The notes beneath the pieces were generated by a model. It did no database searches and was not told the origin of the DNA. It saw nothing but the letters and a program-made list of their open reading frames with translations. Below are positions 44,158 through 64,000 of a stretch of 64,000 nt of DNA, piece after piece. The stretch's first letter is position 1. Each line of letters opens with the position of its first letter. The stretch comes from Deltaproteobacteria bacterium (GTDB lineage: Bacteria; Myxococcota_A; Polyangia; GCA-2747355; JADLHG01): NCBI GenBank assembly GCA_020848905.1, contig JADLHG010000026.1, forward strand, positions 17,422 to 81,421, given 5' to 3'. The translations under genes were made by a program, and so were the position numbers.

Positions 44158-45672
44158 TCAGCGCCGGCGGGCGAAGAAGAGGGCGAGTCCGAGGAGGAGC
44201 GGCAGGAGCAGGCCGAGGTCGCGGCCACCGCCTGCGCCGAGACGACAGCCCCCCACGCGGTCGGCGAGGTCCGCCGGCGGGCCGCACACCGCGTCGGCAC
44301 CGTCGGGGAGACAGGTCGCGCCGGCAGCGCACGCCGCGCCGCTCTTGTTGCAGCGGGCGGTGCAGTACGAGAGGTTCGTGAGCGGGTCCACCAGGCAGAG
44401 GCCCGTGCTGCAGTCGTTGGCGGTCTGGCACGCGGCGCCGAAGTCCCCCGCGTCGAGCCGCGGCCGACAGATCCGCTCCACGCAGTGGTAGCCCGCTCCG
44501 CAGGCGCTGTTCGCCGTGCAGGCCTGCGTGCAGTACCCGGCCCGCTCCTCCGAGGTGCCGAAGCAGAGCTTGCTGCCGCACTGCTGGCTCTCCGTGCACG
44601 CGGTGCCGAAGGTTCCGGCCCCCGCCGAGACGCTGTCGCCGCCGCGCACCCTCACCGTCACGAGCGCCGAGGCGACGCTGCCGCCGTGCGTCTGCACCAC
44701 CGCCTGAAGGACGCGGTTTCCGCCCCGCAGGGGGCCGATCTCGAACCTGAACGGAGCCTGGCGCTTGCTCGCCGCCACCGTCCCGTCCACGAGGAGGTCC
44801 ACCCGCAGCAGCGCGGGGCTGCTGGCCAGCACCGAGACCTCCACGCGATCCGCCGCCTCGAACCCGCTCGTGGGGCTCAGAATCAGCACGTCGCCGAGGT
44901 CGTGGTCCCCGGCGGCGCGGGGCGCGCGCTCCAGCGCCACCTGGCGGGTGATCCACGCGCGAAAGATGTCCACGCGCATGTCGTTCCCCTCGTCGCCGCA
45001 GCTCCCACCCTTGGTGGAGTGCACGCCGAGCAGGATGGGCCGTCCCTCGCGCAGGGCGAAGGTCGGCCCGCCGGAGTCGCCGTCGCAGATGTTTCCGGCG
45101 GAGGCCGCCGCGCCGTACACGGTGAAGAGCTGGTCCGTCACGGTCCCGACGGTGTTCGTGGCCCGCCGCTTGACGCCGAAGCTGCCCTGCCCCTCGAGCG
45201 GCTTGCCGAACCCCACGAGCACGACGCTCTCGCCCACTCGCGGCGCGCGCGTGGCGAGCTCGACCGGCTCGATCCCGCCGACGTCCTCCATCAGCCGCAC
45301 CACCGCCAGGTCGGCATCGTTGCCACCCACGTAGCTCGGGTGCATCGTGACGGTCGCCGCGGCGAAGCGGGGCCCTTGCAGACCGGAGGGGTAGAAGACC
45401 ACCGGCCCCTGCCCCGCCACGCAGTGACCCGCCGTGATCAGCGTGCGGCGCCCGACGAGCGTGGCCGTGCAGCCCGAGTTCGAGCCGGTCCCCGCCACGA
45501 CGATCGCCCCGACCGCGGCGAAGCCCGACTCCGGCGCACCGTTAACGATGGCCGAGGTACGACTCGTCAACTGGGTCTCGGGGTGCGCGGAGTCCCCCGC
45601 GCAGGCCGCCTGGCCGAGCATGAAGGCCGCGGTCAGTAGCCGGAGCATCAGGGGACCGCTGGAGCGTCGCAT
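44158..45672 (-). CDS. Secreted trypsin-like (S1) serine protease with C-terminal Cys-rich modules and a MYXO-CTERM-like tail
   Basis: Catalytic triad TAGHC / D / GDSGGP. Signal peptide MRRSSGPLMLRLLTAAFMLGQAACAG. C-terminus GGCRLGAGGGRDLGLLLPLLLGLALFFARRR. Confidence 0.8.
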   Translation of the reverse strand: MRRSSGPLMLRLLTAAFMLGQAACAGDSAHPETQLTSRTSAIVNGAPESGFAAVGAIVVAGTGSNSGCTATLVGRRTLITAGHCVAGQGPVVFYPSGLQGPRFAAATVTMHPSYVGGNDADLAVVRLMEDVGGIEPVELATRAPRVGESVVLVGFGKPLEGQGSFGVKRRATNTVGTVTDQLFTVYGAAASAGNICDGDSGGPTFALREGRPILLGVHSTKGGSCGDEGNDMRVDIFRAWITRQVALERAPRAAGDHDLGDVLILSPTSGFEAADRVEVSVLASSPALLRVDLLVDGTVAASKRQAPFRFEIGPLRGGNRVLQAVVQTHGGSVASALVTVRVRGGDSVSAGAGTFGTACTESQQCGSKLCFGTSEERAGYCTQACTANSACGAGYHCVERICRPRLDAGDFGAACQTANDCSTGLCLVDPLTNLSYCTARCNKSGAACAAGATCLPDGADAVCGPPADLADRVGGCRLGAGGGRDLGLLLPLLLGLALFFARRR

Positions 45673-45733
45673 CGCCCACATAATGGTGCAAAGGTCAGAC
45701 CAGCCCCCACACGGGTCGCACACCACACTAAGT

Positions 45734-45743
45734 GCGCAATATT
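45734..45743. promoter_or_regulatory. Perfect 10-bp palindrome GCAATATTGC in the lower-GC region upstream of the S1 protease gene
   Basis: Read directly. Lies in the 195-nt gap between the protease start (45672) and the lgt stop (45867). Candidate operator. Confidence 0.3.
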
Positions 45744-45866
45744 GCTTGTGAGCTTCGGCTCGGTGGCCCATCCCACGCTCCGGCACGACGGCTTCTCCTT
45801 CAGCCACCCGTCTCGCGAGTCCCCAGCACCGCCTGCCACCGGCGGGCGCCCATTAGCCGCGCCGCG

Positions 45867-58376: not shown

Positions 58377-61367
58377 GTGCAGATCGCCAACGCAGACCCT
58401 CAACGATCAGATCTGGACCTGCAGAGCGCGAACGATCCCCGGGCCATGGCCCTGCGGCTGGTGGGCGCCGGCAAGAAGGTCCTCGTAGCCGGGCTCGTCG
58501 AGGAGTCGGTGCTTCGAGCCCTGAAGGAACAGCAGTGCCACCTCGTCGTCGTGGCGAAGGAGCGGCAGGCGGCGACCGCGCTGCGCAAACACTGCGCGAC
58601 GGTGATTCACGGTGACCTCGCGCAGCTGAACCTCGGGCCGTACCTCCACGGGCGCAAGTTCGACGTGCTTCTGCTTGGCCAGCTCCTGCAGCAAACGCCC
58701 GCCGCTGCGACCCTCGTGCGCCGACTGCTGCCCTATCTCTCGGAGCAGGGCGCGATCGTCGCCGTCTTCCTGAACGCGGCGCACGCGAGCCGACGTCTGG
58801 CGCTCCTCGCGGGTGAGGCCGACGCGGTGCAGGAGGGGGCCGCGCTCTCGCTCGGAAGCCTGGACGAGATCCGCCGCGGCCTGGCCGAGGGCGGGCTCGC
58901 GCTCGACGCCGTGGAGCGGCTCTACAGTCCGCTCTACGAGAAGCCCGTCGGCGACGGAGATACGTGGGACACCGAGAGCATTCCTCCCGCGGTCCAGCTG
59001 CTGCTCGAACGTGACCCCGAGGCGTCGGTCGGCTTCTACGTGGCCCGCGCGGTGCGCAACCGGATCGATGCGAGCGTCGAGACGCCGCGCCCGGCTCGTC
59101 CCTCGCGCGCTCCGAACGGCCGCCGGACCCTGCTGAGCCGCGCGGAGCAGCAGACGCTCGAGGCGCCGCTGCGTCAGGCCCACGAAACGCGGATGCAGGC
59201 CGAGGCGCGCCTCGCCGCCCTCGCGCTCTCGATGCGCGAGACGGAAGAGGAGAGCGTGCGGCTGCGGGGACAGCTCGACGAACTGCACGGCGAGCTCGAG
59301 GAGCTCCGCCGGCACGCCGAGCAGCACGCGGGGGCCTCCACGGCGCAGGCGGCGAAGCTCCAGCTCCAGCTCGTGGAGCGCGAGGAGGAGCTTCGGCGAC
59401 GGGCGGCGGGGCTCGAGGCGCTCGAGCGCGAGCTCGAACGCAGCGTCGAACACGGCGAGGAGGCGCGGAGGGAACTGGCGCACCTCCTCGGCGAACGGGA
59501 CGGGGAGATCGCGGCGAAGGAAGCGGCGCTCCGCACCCAGCAGGCCGCGGTCGCCGAGCTCGAGGCCGAGCTCGGCCGGCTGCGAGCCCTCGCGCAGACC
59601 GACACGGCGGCGCACCTCCGTCGGGTCGCCGAGCTCGAGGAACGCGAGGCCTCCCAGGGCATCGCCGTGGCCGAAGCCGAGCGCCGGCTGGAGGAGCTTG
59701 CCGAGCGGCTGCGGCAGAGCGACGCAGCCCGGGACGCGCTCGACGCCGAGCTGCTGCGACGTCGCGAGGAGGTGACGGCCACGGAGGAGGCGCGAGCCGC
59801 GCTCGACGCGGCCCTGGCGACCCTCGCAGCGAAAGAGAGCGCTCTCGCGTCCGAGCAACACCGCTCCACGGCCAGCCTCGCGGCCCTCGAGCGTCGGCTG
59901 GAGCAGGAGCGAACTGCGGCGGAGCAGACCTCGCTCACCTTGGCGGCGCGGCTCGGCGAGCTGGAGGACCGGCTGCGCGAGGCCGAGGCCGAGCGAGCCG
60001 AGCGCGAGGGGGAGCTGGACGGGCTGCGCACCCGCCTCGAGGTCACCCGCGGGTGGCTGGCCGAGCGCGACGAGCAGGTCGCCGCGGTGACGGCGCACCT
60101 CGAGCGGACGCAGGGGCACCTCGACGAGACGACCGGAGAGCTGGCCGCGTTCGCCGCGCGTCTGGAGAGCTGCCAGGCCGAGCTGTCGCAGCGCGAAGCG
60201 TCGATCGAGGAGCTCAAGGCCCGCCTCGCCGGGGAGCGCGAGCAGGGAGAAGCGGCACGCCGGGCGCTGGCCGAGGCCGAGGGCACGCTGGCCGAGGTCG
60301 AGAGCGCGCTGGCCGCGCAGGCCCTCGAGCTCGAGGCGAGCGCATGCGCCCTCCACGGCGCGCAGGGGCAGGTCCGGGCCGAGCAGGCCCGCGCGGCGCT
60401 ACTGGAGGACGATCTGGAGGCCACGCGCAACGGGGTGGGCCTCGAACGGGCGCGAGCGGAGGCGCTCGCGGCGACGCTCGAGGGGGCCCACCACGAGCTC
60501 GCGGCGGTGCGCACCCAGGGGGAAGCCACGACCCTCGCGCTCGAAACCACCCGCGACGAGCTCGCGGCGGCGCGCAACCACGGGGAAGCCACGGCCTTCG
60601 CGCTCGAGGTCGCCCGCAACGAGCTGTCGGCAGCGCGCACCGACGCAAACACCACGGCCCTCGCGCTCGAGGCCGCCCGCGACGAGCTGTCGGTCGCCCG
60701 CAGCCGCGGCGAAGCGCTCGAGCTGACCCGAGAGGAGCTGACGGCGGCACGCGCCCGCGGCGAGGCCCTCGAAGCGGAGCTTCGCGAAGCCCGCGGCGAC
60801 CTGGCGCAGGAGCGCACGCGCACCGACGAGCTCTTCCGCCGGAGCTCCGAGCAGGCCGAGGAGATCCGCGGCCTCGAGCAACGACTCGCCCGCGCGGGAG
60901 CCGAGGTGGCCGCGGTGCAGAGCTCGCTCGAGGCCCGCGTCTCCTCGCTCCTGACCGACCTCGGCGAGCGCGAGCAGATCCTGAGCGCCCGCGGCGCGCG
61001 CGTGCACCAGCTCGAGGAAGAGGCCGAGACGCTGCGCCGGGCCGCGCAGCACATGCGGGCGGTCCTCGAGCTCCACGCCGCGGAGCTCCAGGACGAGCTC
61101 TCACGGCTGCGCGGGAGCTTCCTCGTGCGGATCGCCGCGCGGGTGATGGACACGCGCGAGCGGCTGCTGCCCGTGGGGACCCGCCGACGCGCGGCCTACG
61201 ACCGCCTCGTCGGATACGCTGCGACGGCGACTCCGCCCACGCGCTCGGAACAGCTCAGCCGCTCCGCCCGCCCCCGCGGCGCGTCGCGGCCGGCCTCCTC
61301 CACCCCCCTCGACGGTGCGATCTCGCGCGCCACCTCCCTCTTCCGGCAGCCGTCGGCGCGGGCATAG
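58377..61367 (+). CDS. Large coiled-coil protein with an N-terminal Rossmann/methyltransferase-like domain
   Basis: GTG at 58377 with GGAGGG 8 nt upstream (alternative ATG at 58335). N-terminal VGAGKKVLVAG glycine-rich loop. Roughly 750 aa of E/A/R/L coiled coil with 21-aa tandem repeats. Confidence 0.6.
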   Translation: MQIANADPQRSDLDLQSANDPRAMALRLVGAGKKVLVAGLVEESVLRALKEQQCHLVVVAKERQAATALRKHCATVIHGDLAQLNLGPYLHGRKFDVLLLGQLLQQTPAAATLVRRLLPYLSEQGAIVAVFLNAAHASRRLALLAGEADAVQEGAALSLGSLDEIRRGLAEGGLALDAVERLYSPLYEKPVGDGDTWDTESIPPAVQLLLERDPEASVGFYVARAVRNRIDASVETPRPARPSRAPNGRRTLLSRAEQQTLEAPLRQAHETRMQAEARLAALALSMRETEEESVRLRGQLDELHGELEELRRHAEQHAGASTAQAAKLQLQLVEREEELRRRAAGLEALERELERSVEHGEEARRELAHLLGERDGEIAAKEAALRTQQAAVAELEAELGRLRALAQTDTAAHLRRVAELEEREASQGIAVAEAERRLEELAERLRQSDAARDALDAELLRRREEVTATEEARAALDAALATLAAKESALASEQHRSTASLAALERRLEQERTAAEQTSLTLAARLGELEDRLREAEAERAEREGELDGLRTRLEVTRGWLAERDEQVAAVTAHLERTQGHLDETTGELAAFAARLESCQAELSQREASIEELKARLAGEREQGEAARRALAEAEGTLAEVESALAAQALELEASACALHGAQGQVRAEQARAALLEDDLEATRNGVGLERARAEALAATLEGAHHELAAVRTQGEATTLALETTRDELAAARNHGEATAFALEVARNELSAARTDANTTALALEAARDELSVARSRGEALELTREELTAARARGEALEAELREARGDLAQERTRTDELFRRSSEQAEEIRGLEQRLARAGAEVAAVQSSLEARVSSLLTDLGEREQILSARGARVHQLEEEAETLRRAAQHMRAVLELHAAELQDELSRLRGSFLVRIAARVMDTRERLLPVGTRRRAAYDRLVGYAATATPPTRSEQLSRSARPRGASRPASSTPLDGAISRATSLFRQPSARA
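60518..60780 (+). repeat. Tandem 63-nt (21-aa) repeats inside the coiled-coil gene, about 3 to 4 copies
   Basis: The unit GGGGAAGCCACGACCCTCGCGCTCGAAACCACCCGCGACGAGCTCGCGGCGGCGCGCAACCAC recurs at about 60518, 60582 and 60645 with substitutions. Confidence 0.7.
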
Positions 61368-61410
61368 GGACCCCCGGCGCGGGCGCACGGGCCCTACCTG
61401 ACCGCGCGGC

Positions 61411-61995
61411 TCACTTCGCGCAGTAGCTGCAGGGCACGCCGGGGACCGGGTTGCACGTACCGCCCCCCGGACAACTCGAGGTGCAGGTGGGCCGACAGAG
61501 GCCGGTCTTCGCCGTGGGCGGCGACGCGATGCACACGAGGGTCCCGGCGCACGGGCGGTCCTCGTCGCAGGCCTTGCCCTCGCCTTCGCCCGGCATGCAC
61601 ACGGCCTGGCTTATGACGGTGTTGATGCAGGTCTCGCTATCCTTGCACGGGCTGACCTTCGGATTGCAGTCGGCGCGCGTGCAAGGCGACCGACAGGCGC
61701 CCTTCACGCAGAGCAGCGGGGCCTTGCAGGGGCATGGCCCGCCGGGGATCGTCGTGAGCACCGTGCTGTCGGGCTTGACGGGCGCCGCGTCGGCTCGGAC
61801 GGCGGGCTGGTCGTAGTGCACGGCCAGGTCCGCCGGCGGGACGGCGCGGTCACGGAGCGGCGCCGCGTCGGCCGGAGGAATGGGGCTCGAGCTGCCTGGG
61901 CAACCGGCGGTGCAGCTGACGAGAGCGATCCAGAGCCCCGGAGTTCGGAGGAGCGCCGACGCGAGGCGAGAAGGGGTGGGTGAAGGCATTGTCAT
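61411..61995 (-). CDS. Cys-rich lipoprotein (paralog A)
   Basis: ATG at 61995 or 61989. Signal MTMPSPTPSRLASALLRTPGLWIALVSCTAGC. About 20 Cys, including GGPCPCKAPLLCVKGACRSPCT. Confidence 0.55.
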   Translation of the reverse strand: MTMPSPTPSRLASALLRTPGLWIALVSCTAGCPGSSSPIPPADAAPLRDRAVPPADLAVHYDQPAVRADAAPVKPDSTVLTTIPGGPCPCKAPLLCVKGACRSPCTRADCNPKVSPCKDSETCINTVISQAVCMPGEGEGKACDEDRPCAGTLVCIASPPTAKTGLCRPTCTSSCPGGGTCNPVPGVPCSYCAK

Positions 61996-62039
61996 CCGTT
62001 TTGCAATCCACGTTCCGTAGGAGGCCAGTCGACGAGAGC

Positions 62040-62681
62040 GTGACCACAGCGTGCCACAGCCGGACGAAATGGGTGCAACGCCTCGCGCTTTCCGCCGGAT
62101 TGGTCGCCCTGACCGCAAGCCAGGGGTGCCAGACCGGCACGGTGGAAAGCGGGGACGCTAGACCCCAGGGCCCCCCTCCGACCTGGAGCGATCAGGGGAG
62201 CTGGCCCGATCGGGGGGCGGAGCGAAAGGACCAGAGGCTCGCCGACCGGGATGCCGGGGCGGGGGAGGCCCGGCCGAGGGACCGCGGCGTCCGGGACGCG
62301 GGCCGAGCGGACGCACCGACGACGCCCGGGCTGGGCGGACCGTGCCCGTGCAAGGCCCCCTTGCTCTGCGTCTGGAAGACCTGCCACGCCCCCTGCACTC
62401 CCTCCGGAGGCTGCGACGAGCTCTCGGGATGCCCGTCGAACCAGGCCTGCATCGCCGTCACCGACCGCCCGGCCGGGACCTACGCCTGCGTCCCCGGGGT
62501 CGCGCTCGGTGCCACCTGCGACGCGAACACCTCGTGCCGCAGCGGGACGATCTGCGCCACGGTCTCGGGCAAGCCTTTGCAGTGCACCGCCACCTGCCCG
62601 ACGCCGGGCGCGGGCTGCGGGCAGGGTGGCCTGTGCATCCCCACCTCCCGCGCGGGCTGCAACCTCTGCGCGCCGCCGTGA
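62040..62681 (+). CDS. Cys-rich lipoprotein (paralog B), divergently transcribed
   Basis: Lipobox LVALTASQGC. GGPCPCKAPLLCVWKTCHAPCT is shared with paralog A. Start is uncertain (GTG 62040, or in-frame 61980/62001/62076). Confidence 0.5.
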   Translation: MTTACHSRTKWVQRLALSAGLVALTASQGCQTGTVESGDARPQGPPPTWSDQGSWPDRGAERKDQRLADRDAGAGEARPRDRGVRDAGRADAPTTPGLGGPCPCKAPLLCVWKTCHAPCTPSGGCDELSGCPSNQACIAVTDRPAGTYACVPGVALGATCDANTSCRSGTICATVSGKPLQCTATCPTPGAGCGQGGLCIPTSRAGCNLCAPP

Positions 62682-62769
62682 GCTCCGTGGGGCATGTTTT
62701 GCTTGATCCCCCGGCGAATTGGGGGCATACACGGCGGGCGTCTTACCCAGGCGGCACGTCGAGGGGCCC

Positions 62770-64000
62770 ATGGGCCGCAGAAACATCCTTGAGATTCCGC
62801 TGAACGAGCTCGCCGAAGGCGACATCATCTACGATTGGAACACTGCGACCTCAAGTTCCAGGCCCCTCCAGCCGATTAGACTCTTCGACGAAACCCTGCG
62901 GGACGGATTGCAGTCCCCCTCGGTCGTAGACCCGCCAATCGGCGAGAAGTTGCGTCTCGTGCACCTGATGGACCAGGTCGGAATCCACCACGTCGACATC
63001 GGGTTGCCCGGTGCCGGCCCGCGTGCGCGAGAGGACGTGCGCGCGCTGGCCCGCGAGATGGCCGACGCGAAGCTGGGGATCCGGGGCGCCTGCGCCGCGC
63101 GCACCACGGCGGTGGACATCCAGCCGATCATCGACATCTCGCAGGAGGTCGGGCTCGAGATCGAGGTCATGACCTTCATCGGGTCCAGCTCCATCCGGCG
63201 CTACGCCGAGCAGTGGGACCTCGAGCTGATGCTCAAGCGCACCGCCGAGGCCGTCGAGCTGTGCCGGCGCCACAACCTGCCGTGCACGTACGTGACGGAG
63301 GACACGACGCGCTCTCACCCCGAGGTCCTCGAGACCCTCTTCCGCTGCGCCATCGATAACGGCGCGTACCGCCTCTGCCTGTGCGACACCGTGGGTCACG
63401 CCACCCCCGACGGCGTGCGGGCGCTCATCGAGTGGACGCTGCGCCTGACCGCCGAGCACGGCCCTCACGTGGGGATCGACTGGCACGGGCACAATGACCG
63501 CGGGCTCGCCCTCGAGAACGCCCTCTGGGCGGCGCAGTTCGGCGCAGACCGGGTGCACGGCACGATCCTCGGCGTGGGCGAGCGCGTCGGAAACACGGCC
63601 ATCGATCAGCTCCTGCTGAACCTGAAGCTCCTCGGCTGGCACCAGGGGGACGTGAGCAAGCTCGTGCTCCTCTGCAAGACGCTCTCCGCCGCCACCCGAG
63701 TTCCCATCCCTTTCAATTACCCGCTCGTGGGCGACGACGCCTTCCGCACGGCCACCGGAGTTCACGCCGCGGCCGTGATCAAGGCCGAGCGCCGGGGCGA
63801 TAGTTATTTGGCGGACCACATCTATTCTGGAGTGCCGGCCAGCGCGTTCGGCAAGCAACAAGAAATTGCCATCGGCCACATGAGTGGCGAATCCAACGTA
63901 GTCTACTGGCTTGGCAAGCGGGGTGTAGAGGCGGCGGACGAGCTGGTGAGACGCATCTTCGACGAAGCCAAGAAGTCCAACCGGCTTCTCACCGACGATG
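62770..64000 (+). CDS. 2-isopropylmalate synthase/homocitrate synthase family (DRE-TIM metallolyase), 3' end truncated by the window edge
   Basis: FDETLRDGLQSP, HGHNDRGLALENALWAA and GERVGNTAIDQ motifs. Not in the ORF track because it has no stop inside the window. Confidence 0.75.
   Translation, partial: MGRRNILEIPLNELAEGDIIYDWNTATSSSRPLQPIRLFDETLRDGLQSPSVVDPPIGEKLRLVHLMDQVGIHHVDIGLPGAGPRAREDVRALAREMADAKLGIRGACAARTTAVDIQPIIDISQEVGLEIEVMTFIGSSSIRRYAEQWDLELMLKRTAEAVELCRRHNLPCTYVTEDTTRSHPEVLETLFRCAIDNGAYRLCLCDTVGHATPDGVRALIEWTLRLTAEHGPHVGIDWHGHNDRGLALENALWAAQFGADRVHGTILGVGERVGNTAIDQLLLNLKLLGWHQGDVSKLVLLCKTLSAATRVPIPFNYPLVGDDAFRTATGVHAAAVIKAERRGDSYLADHIYSGVPASAFGKQQEIAIGHMSGESNVVYWLGKRGVEAADELVRRIFDEAKKSNRLLTDD

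Follow-up and report, generated by a model that had tools for sequence, protein, structure and literature searches.

Do two divergently transcribed genes for Cys-rich lipoproteins, parts of which match each other in inverted orientation, form an arrangement that recombines or regulates itself, or are they old relatives whose likeness at the DNA level follows from the proteins they encode? The preliminary description of this part of the window (the whole 64,000-nt stretch of DNA that was analysed) raised the first possibility, based on starts that almost touch and on an inverted nucleotide repeat.

Coding status and starts of the two genes

The genes, here called A and B, lie head to head:

61411..61989, minus strand: gene A, 192 aa, A-type, NCBI IT371_10475 = MCC6748074.1 (ORF list)
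62040..62681, plus strand: gene B, ~213 aa, B-type, start uncertain (ORF list)

They end in stop codons at 61411-61413 (A) and 62679-62681 (B), and A-type and B-type refer to two groups of the family tree presented below. The product of gene A (P0001) is an exact match to MCC6748074.1, and the source MAG is labelled 'Deltaproteobacteria bacterium'.

Given a window GC content of 71%, long open reading frames occur in many frames, and one of 278 aa, antisense to gene B, spans that gene. It could thus be argued that high GC content alone keeps the frames of gene A, gene B or both open and that their similarity reflects low complexity. However, the GC3 signature of coding is restricted to the proposed frames, with 0.87 for gene A and 0.89 for gene B. 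In-frame upstream extensions have values of 0.58 (A) and 0.74 (B), and in the antisense frame GC3 is 0.65 and the GC excess falls at the wrong codon position. Furthermore, all 18 Cys of the two C-terminal domains align, ~70 homologs from other samples have the same architecture, and AF2 models of both domains are confident. The chance that the genes are spurious is practically nil, and the family evidence refutes both this and a low-complexity origin of the similarity.

Gene A begins at ATG 61989 (the NCBI call) or at an alternative ATG, 61995. For gene B, GTG 62040 is the best estimate, with TTG 62001 and GTG 62073 as possible alternatives; the signal Cys would be residue 30 if translation begins at 62040, 19 at 62073, 43 at 62001 and 50 at 61980. 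The earlier statement that the starts are ~45 nt apart holds (44-50 nt with GTG 62040), but not the in-frame ATG that was placed at 61980, where the codon is GTG. Used as the start of gene B, GTG 61980 would create a 10-16 nt overlap with gene A. This start is unlikely because the stretch behind it looks non-coding: GC3 is ~0.70, AGG codons occur in tandem, and several further codons end in A or T.

The public version of gene B (P0002; IT371_10480, MCC6748075.1) covers 62361-62681 only and encodes 106 aa. The TTG used as its start (62361) is internal to the gene and falls within the conserved motif GGPCPCKAPLLC. Signal peptide, linker and the first two of the domain's Cys are thereby lost, the signal peptide and linker being present only if translation begins upstream of the NCBI call. 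Together, the family alignment and GC3 support an upstream start, and we correct the annotation of IT371_10480: the 106-aa product is too short.

Similarity and predicted architecture of the proteins

Full-length A and B share 32% identity over 158 aa (BLASTP, E=2e-15), and the C-terminal domains of 110-115 aa share 39% of their residues and align at every one of the 18 Cys. The similarity is domain-wide and not confined to a short, low-complexity GC-rich stretch, the outcome that would have undone the original proposal. Both proteins contain GGPCPCKAPLLCV-x3-C-x2-PCT. From the Val onwards the sequence reads VKGAC in A and VWKTC in B, so that the spacing after Val is [K/W]-x-x-C. The shared motif and the similar Cys pattern noted at the outset are therefore sound (18/18 Cys aligned), but the spacing given then, x-K/W-x-C, was slightly off. 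The parts of the two proteins are as follows:

61900..61989, minus strand: gene A signal peptide, residues 1-30, with lipobox-type Cys30 (TAGC followed by PG), Cys codon 61900-61902 (alignment A5, family survey)
61744..61899, minus strand: gene A linker, 52 aa, Pro/Ala/Asp-rich, predicted disordered (composition; AF2 pLDDT 42-54 at residues 11-80)
61414..61743, minus strand: gene A C-terminal domain, 110 aa, 18 Cys (alignments A2 and A3, AF2)
62040..62129, plus strand: gene B signal peptide, residues 1-30, with lipobox-type Cys30 (SQGC followed by QT), Cys codon 62127-62129 (alignment A5)
62130..62333, plus strand: gene B linker, 68 aa, Gly/Arg/Asp/Ala/Pro-rich (composition)
62334..62678, plus strand: gene B C-terminal domain, 115 aa, 18 Cys (alignments A2 and A3, AF2)

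The lipobox pattern tested was [LVI][ASTVI][GAS]C. At the corresponding position gene A reads LWIALVSCTAGC followed by PG and gene B reads AGLVALTASQGC followed by QT; positions -1 and +1 fit, and -3 and -2 are atypical (TAGC, SQGC). Cys30 of both proteins falls in the invariant Cys column of alignment A5, where it precedes PG in A and QT in B (gapped). Across the family, 54 of 69 members have the strict lipobox pattern. In the other 15, a hydrophobic stretch followed by a Cys can be recognized by eye, and in most of these Pro/Ala-Gly comes next. We consider both products to be predicted lipoproteins with a non-canonical lipobox. Coding GC3, BLASTP, the 18 aligned Cys and the family-wide signal Cys all uphold the description of the locus as a divergent pair of paralogous Cys-rich lipoprotein genes.

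In the AF2 model of gene A (16-row alignment), residues 1-80 are disordered (pLDDT 42-57) and the Cys domain forms a confident all-beta unit (pLDDT about 73-93). The domain of gene B, modelled alone, is also all-beta (mean pLDDT 85.3, pTM 0.69). When the N-terminal and C-terminal halves of the domain were compared for internal duplication using hhalign, only 13 columns aligned, and for this reason we do not claim a two-repeat domain architecture.

The proteins would thus consist of a signal peptide with a lipobox-type Cys, a disordered linker of 50-70 aa and an all-beta domain of 110-115 aa, whose 18 Cys presumably form nine disulfides. Export would be followed by lipid anchoring via the N-terminal Cys, so that a flexible tether would hold the disulfide-knotted domain at the cell surface or in the periplasm, an oxidising environment. 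By analogy with small disulfide-rich binders, this domain may bind a protein or other ligand, or act as an inhibitor.

A family of tethered Cys-rich proteins

Word-indexed homolog searches with the single proteins returned only A itself for A and no match for B, and the pattern PCPC[KQA]xPLLC was found at one locus each in the genome and metagenome collections. Exhaustive HMMER searches with a two-sequence (A+B) domain profile yielded 77 cluster representatives at E<=1e-3, of which 28 also pass E<=1e-10. The list includes at least two apparent false positives (the eukaryotic low-complexity proteins P0062 and P0063), and a few fragments and the repeat proteins P0069 and P0073 are on it too. Against the family HMM, gene A scores E 2e-24 and gene B E 3e-29.

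Members are mostly 160-230 aa in length, with the Cys domain at the extreme C-terminus. The N-terminus is a hydrophobic signal with a Cys at its end, after which Pro/Ala-Gly usually comes next (consensus L-x-G-C-P-G-E-L), and the linker is of low complexity and typically rich in Pro and Asp. The domain itself, ~112 aa long, starts with G-x-P-C-P-C; of its 18 Cys, 16 are invariant and 2 nearly so (alignment A3, 63 sequences). A and B have the 18 Cys in register, the N-terminal signal Cys and the low-complexity linker.

No Pfam model matched A or B above threshold, and NCBIfam returned no family for either at E<=10, including the Myxococcus cysteine-rich repeat. Among 63 members, weak Pfam matches were obtained to Dickkopf_N (19/63, best E 1.5e-4), DUF7107 (18/63, best E 5.7e-4) and the EB module (12/63, best E 2e-3). 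Judging from the sequences, these are uncharacterised small bacterial lipoproteins from GC-rich, myxobacteria-like metagenome assemblies. The ~70 cluster representatives of tethered 18-Cys lipoproteins, which are without a Pfam or NCBIfam model, could merit a DUF entry.

Two longer proteins, P0017 (496 aa) and P0018 (542 aa), carry an A-type Cys domain C-terminal to a conserved region of ~400 aa that has no Pfam match, and P0018 begins with a lipoprotein-like signal. A Pfam scan of these fusions and of the repeat proteins P0069 and P0073 provided no functional clue.

The duplication is old

In a neighbor-joining (NJ) tree, the family splits into two deep groups, with A in one and B in the other. 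A-type proteins have the signatures C-N-G-x-G-G-C, A-G-G-L-L-C and a terminal Y-C-Y; B-type proteins have P-T-D-x-C-K-A-V-S-N-C-P, H-V-C-G-S-V-N and a terminal F-C-S-x-P. A shares 45-48% identity with A-type proteins of unrelated samples vs 39% with B, and, ranked by identity, B is only the 20th protein for A and A the 34th for B. A and B were sisters in none of 100 NJ bootstraps, and any group that contained both comprised 10 members or more (median 28 for the smallest such group). Of the 100 replicates, 22 reproduced the exact 15-member A-type split. Because A and B never pair as sisters and fall in different deep clades, the duplication that produced them is, on this tree, ancient and predates the divergence of many lineages. 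A recent inverted duplication or gene conversion was considered and rejected, as A and B are not each other's closest relatives and their synonymous sites are at random expectation.

The inverted match is what coding predicts

The arms of the inverted match coincide with the codons for the same motif in the two genes:

61705..61743, minus strand: left arm, gene A codons for GGPCPCKAPLLCV, identical to the right arm at 33/39 nt
62334..62372, plus strand: right arm, gene B codons for GGPCPCKAPLLCV

The reported inverted match of ~85%, near 61700..61745 and 62330..62370, is real: the core is identical at 33 of 39 nt (85%), and a repeat finder extends it to a 73-nt inverted repeat (I1; 61671-61743 vs 62334-62406) of 71% identity. 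The observed 33 identical positions are not due to chance: among 100 random sequences from a first-order Markov model, the best 39-mer inverted match had a mean of 25.6 (sd 0.8) and a maximum no higher than 28.

Nevertheless, the match does not stand as a feature in its own right. Using a codon-usage table based on 13,805 codons (25 long window ORFs with high GC3), arms that encode identical residues with independently chosen codons are expected to share 84% of their nucleotides vs the 85% observed. Identical codons make up 7 of the 13 in the core (expected 7.0, sd 1.7), the other 6 being different, and 22 of the 43 identical-residue columns of the domain (expected 24.7, sd 3.0). Codon-aligned nucleotide identity over the entire A/B domain is 55%, and the longest exact run between the arms is 11 nt. 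Since synonymous sites are at random expectation, they hold no trace of shared ancestry or gene conversion. They look saturated, in agreement with the deep split of A and B in the tree. The inverted repeat is a passive by-product of both genes encoding the most conserved motif of the family. It would have no function of its own, with both genes simply spelling out that motif at about 88% GC3.

Genomic context

Gene A is convergent with a gene on the plus strand (58446-61367) for a 973-aa protein that begins with a MetW-like methyltransferase region and continues as ~800 aa of coiled coil. Tandem DNA repeats occur within this gene (63 nt x3.4 at 60475-60688; 51 nt x2.2 at 60663-60772). An HMGL-like gene of the isopropylmalate or citramalate synthase type starts at ATG 62770, 88 nt downstream of gene B. 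We found no functional link of either flanking gene to the A/B pair. Blastn against a plasmid collection found no match.

The only other assembly of the locus is a 1057-nt contig (L017; Logan SRR9852175), which is 99.6% identical to the window, with four SNPs. Collinearity with the window runs from the upstream coiled-coil gene across gene A and the spacer and reaches 82 nt into gene B.

For comparison, we assembled 10 independent loci with DNA (L001, L002, L003-5, L006-8, L009, L010-12, L013, L014, L015 and L016), drawn from genome and metagenome scans and exact-protein look-ups, several of them on very short contigs. A six-frame HMM scan identified exactly one family member in 10 of 10 (0.1-8 kb of flank). 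As to copy number, which the preliminary description proposed to compare among relatives, each of the 10 loci is single-copy. Gene neighbours also vary among these loci, and we discarded the idea of a conserved neighbourhood because their contexts differ. As the pairing is not kept in the 10 other loci, the adjacency of A and B may be accidental rather than functional.

Trypsin-like domains turned up in the window and at two other loci. In the window, a trypsin-like serine protease (44158-45807, minus strand; Pfam Trypsin E 1e-20) has a Cys-rich C-terminal extension (~residues 428-503) with weak similarity to part of the family domain (hhalign probability 77.5%, E 1.9e-5; family HMM E 3.7e-4). 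In two independent contexts, L003 (9545-11017, minus strand) and L011 (9031-10563, minus strand), a gene for a Trypsin+CAP domain protein is found 1-6 kb away from a family member. L010 and L012 share the L011 context, and their contigs end at the corresponding gene. This proximity may be fortuitous, or it may indicate a connection between proteases and the Cys-rich lipoproteins.

The divergent spacer

The region between the genes is compact:

61990..62039, no strand: divergent intergenic region, 50 nt on best starts, 57% GC, with AGGAGG at 62018-62023 (sequence)

Around the best estimate of 50 nt, the range is 11-83 nt, widening to 5-83 nt over all combinations of start codons and narrowing to 44-50 nt if gene B begins at GTG 62040. 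Other divergent spacers in the window measure 157, 163, 357 and 407 nt on a crude GC3-based gene map, and one further divergent gap, of 1187 nt, probably hides a missed gene; the A-B spacer is the shortest. The drop in GC to 57% is confined to 61960-62049. Within it, AGGAGG at 62018-62023 reads better as a Shine-Dalgarno-like sequence than as AGG AGG codons. At position 107 of L017 (window 62019), one of the four SNPs turns AGGAGG into GGGAGG.

A scan for the sigma-70 consensus detected no promoter-like site, and an Rfam scan of 61000-63000 had no match. A weak terminator-like hairpin on the plus strand (62676-62690), with a 5-bp stem followed by GGCATGTTTT, overlaps the gene B stop. Given so short a spacer (50 nt at best estimate), the promoters of A and B probably overlap each other or the 5' coding region of the neighbour.

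Weighing the alternatives

Could the locus be an inversion switch? Homologous or site-specific recombination between the arms would flip the promoters and 5' segments and swap the N-terminal halves of the two proteins, much as in phase- or antigen-variation switches. The inverted match is above chance, and its arms share codon phase, so that a crossover would yield in-frame chimeras. However, the identity of the arms is that expected from coding, and the longest perfect run of 11 nt is too short for efficient homologous recombination. Efficient RecA recombination needs roughly 20-30 bp, and 11 nt is far below this. In addition, A and B are ancient paralogs, and the locus lies in the window's orientation on the near-identical contig L017, a sample of one that shows no inversion. 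The immediate flanking genes are the HMGL-like synthase and the MetW-like coiled-coil gene, with no invertase or recombinase among them. Identity beyond coding, long exact runs, both orientations and an adjacent recombinase, by which an invertible switch would be recognized, are not seen. An inversion switch, already largely refuted by identity, run length, the orientation of L017 and paralog age, is extremely improbable, and the suggestion that these head-to-head paralogs recombine is not supported.

The alternatives that remain concern why A and B are adjacent and how they are transcribed. If the proteins act together, for example as an A-type/B-type heteromer, adjacency may have been selected for stoichiometric co-expression. 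The genes do come from the two subfamilies and have one common control region, and both types are found in at least one other sample (JGI 3300075153), as P0050 (A-type) and P0080 (B-type by sequence inspection in alignment A5, absent from the tree). Yet in that sample the two are on different contigs with unrelated neighbours, and a second family member was not found within 1-8 kb at any other locus, making joint action quite unlikely as the reason for adjacency. P0050 is divergent from a Ser/Thr kinase gene (gene table), and P0080 is divergent, at a distance of 113 nt, from a gene for a 229-aa protein without a Pfam match. Alternatively, the short spacer may lead to face-to-face, overlapping transcription, in which interference or antisense 5' UTRs render expression of A and B mutually exclusive. 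The spacer of 11-83 nt vs 157-407 nt for the other divergent pairs and the GC dip limited to 61960-62049 are consistent with this, and there would seem to be no room for two separate promoters plus UTRs. However, the sigma-70 consensus scan recognized no promoter hexamers, and the pairing is not conserved in the 10 other loci. Moreover, bacteria frequently have divergent promoters that overlap, with co-regulation rather than exclusion often the result, and leaderless transcripts would abolish any overlap of the A and B transcripts. We think mutually exclusive expression unlikely. Reciprocal antisense regulation of A and B, the other proposal made at the outset, may occur.

Old paralogs and their likeness to known systems

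So, what is this locus? It is an ordinary locus, a pair of old paralogs whose family is uncharacterised but unremarkable. Stated in full, the explanation that we hold with good confidence is that A and B represent two subfamilies of uncharacterised lipoproteins with a tethered Cys-rich domain, that they stand head to head, and that the repeat between them is passive. Their common control region of ~50 nt would have overlapping promoters, and A and B may be co-regulated or may interfere with one another as a result. The locus is of little consequence for genome mechanics because a recombination or antisense device is not supported.

The weak matches of the family domain invite comparison with known modules. 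It bears a weak resemblance to Dickkopf_N (PF04706) and the colipase-fold group (colipase, prokineticin/Bv8, MIT1), with scores below the gathering threshold of 25 bits and no significant fold match. The resemblance to inhibitor-cystine-knot (knottin) peptides and to modules of the IGFBP / HtrA1 N-domain type is similarly weak. Pfam matches to DUF7107 (PF23416) and the EB module (PF01683) are all below gathering scores, gene B reaching E 0.12 and 13.1 bits with DUF7107 vs a gathering score of 24.6, and literature searches returned nothing relevant on Dickkopf in myxobacteria or on DUF7107. These weak signals appear to agree in kind, pointing to small disulfide-rich binder modules, but none is significant and none assigns the family. 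With no significant match, we do not file the domain under Dickkopf, colipase or knottin. A more daring proposal, that the family is an undescribed bacterial lineage of Dickkopf/colipase-like modules on lipid-anchored tethers, and that the overlapping promoters of A and B impose coupled or exclusive expression of surface variants, strikes us as very unlikely.

With regard to gene arrangement, the old paralogs A and B resemble the bacterial bidirectional promoter regions, which are likewise head to head, span a few tens of nucleotides and have elements that overlie the promoter or 5' region of the partner. Classic divergent pairs usually consist of a regulator and its target, unlike the two paralogous structural genes here, and the 50-nt spacer between them would be a clean natural case in which to study overlapping promoters.
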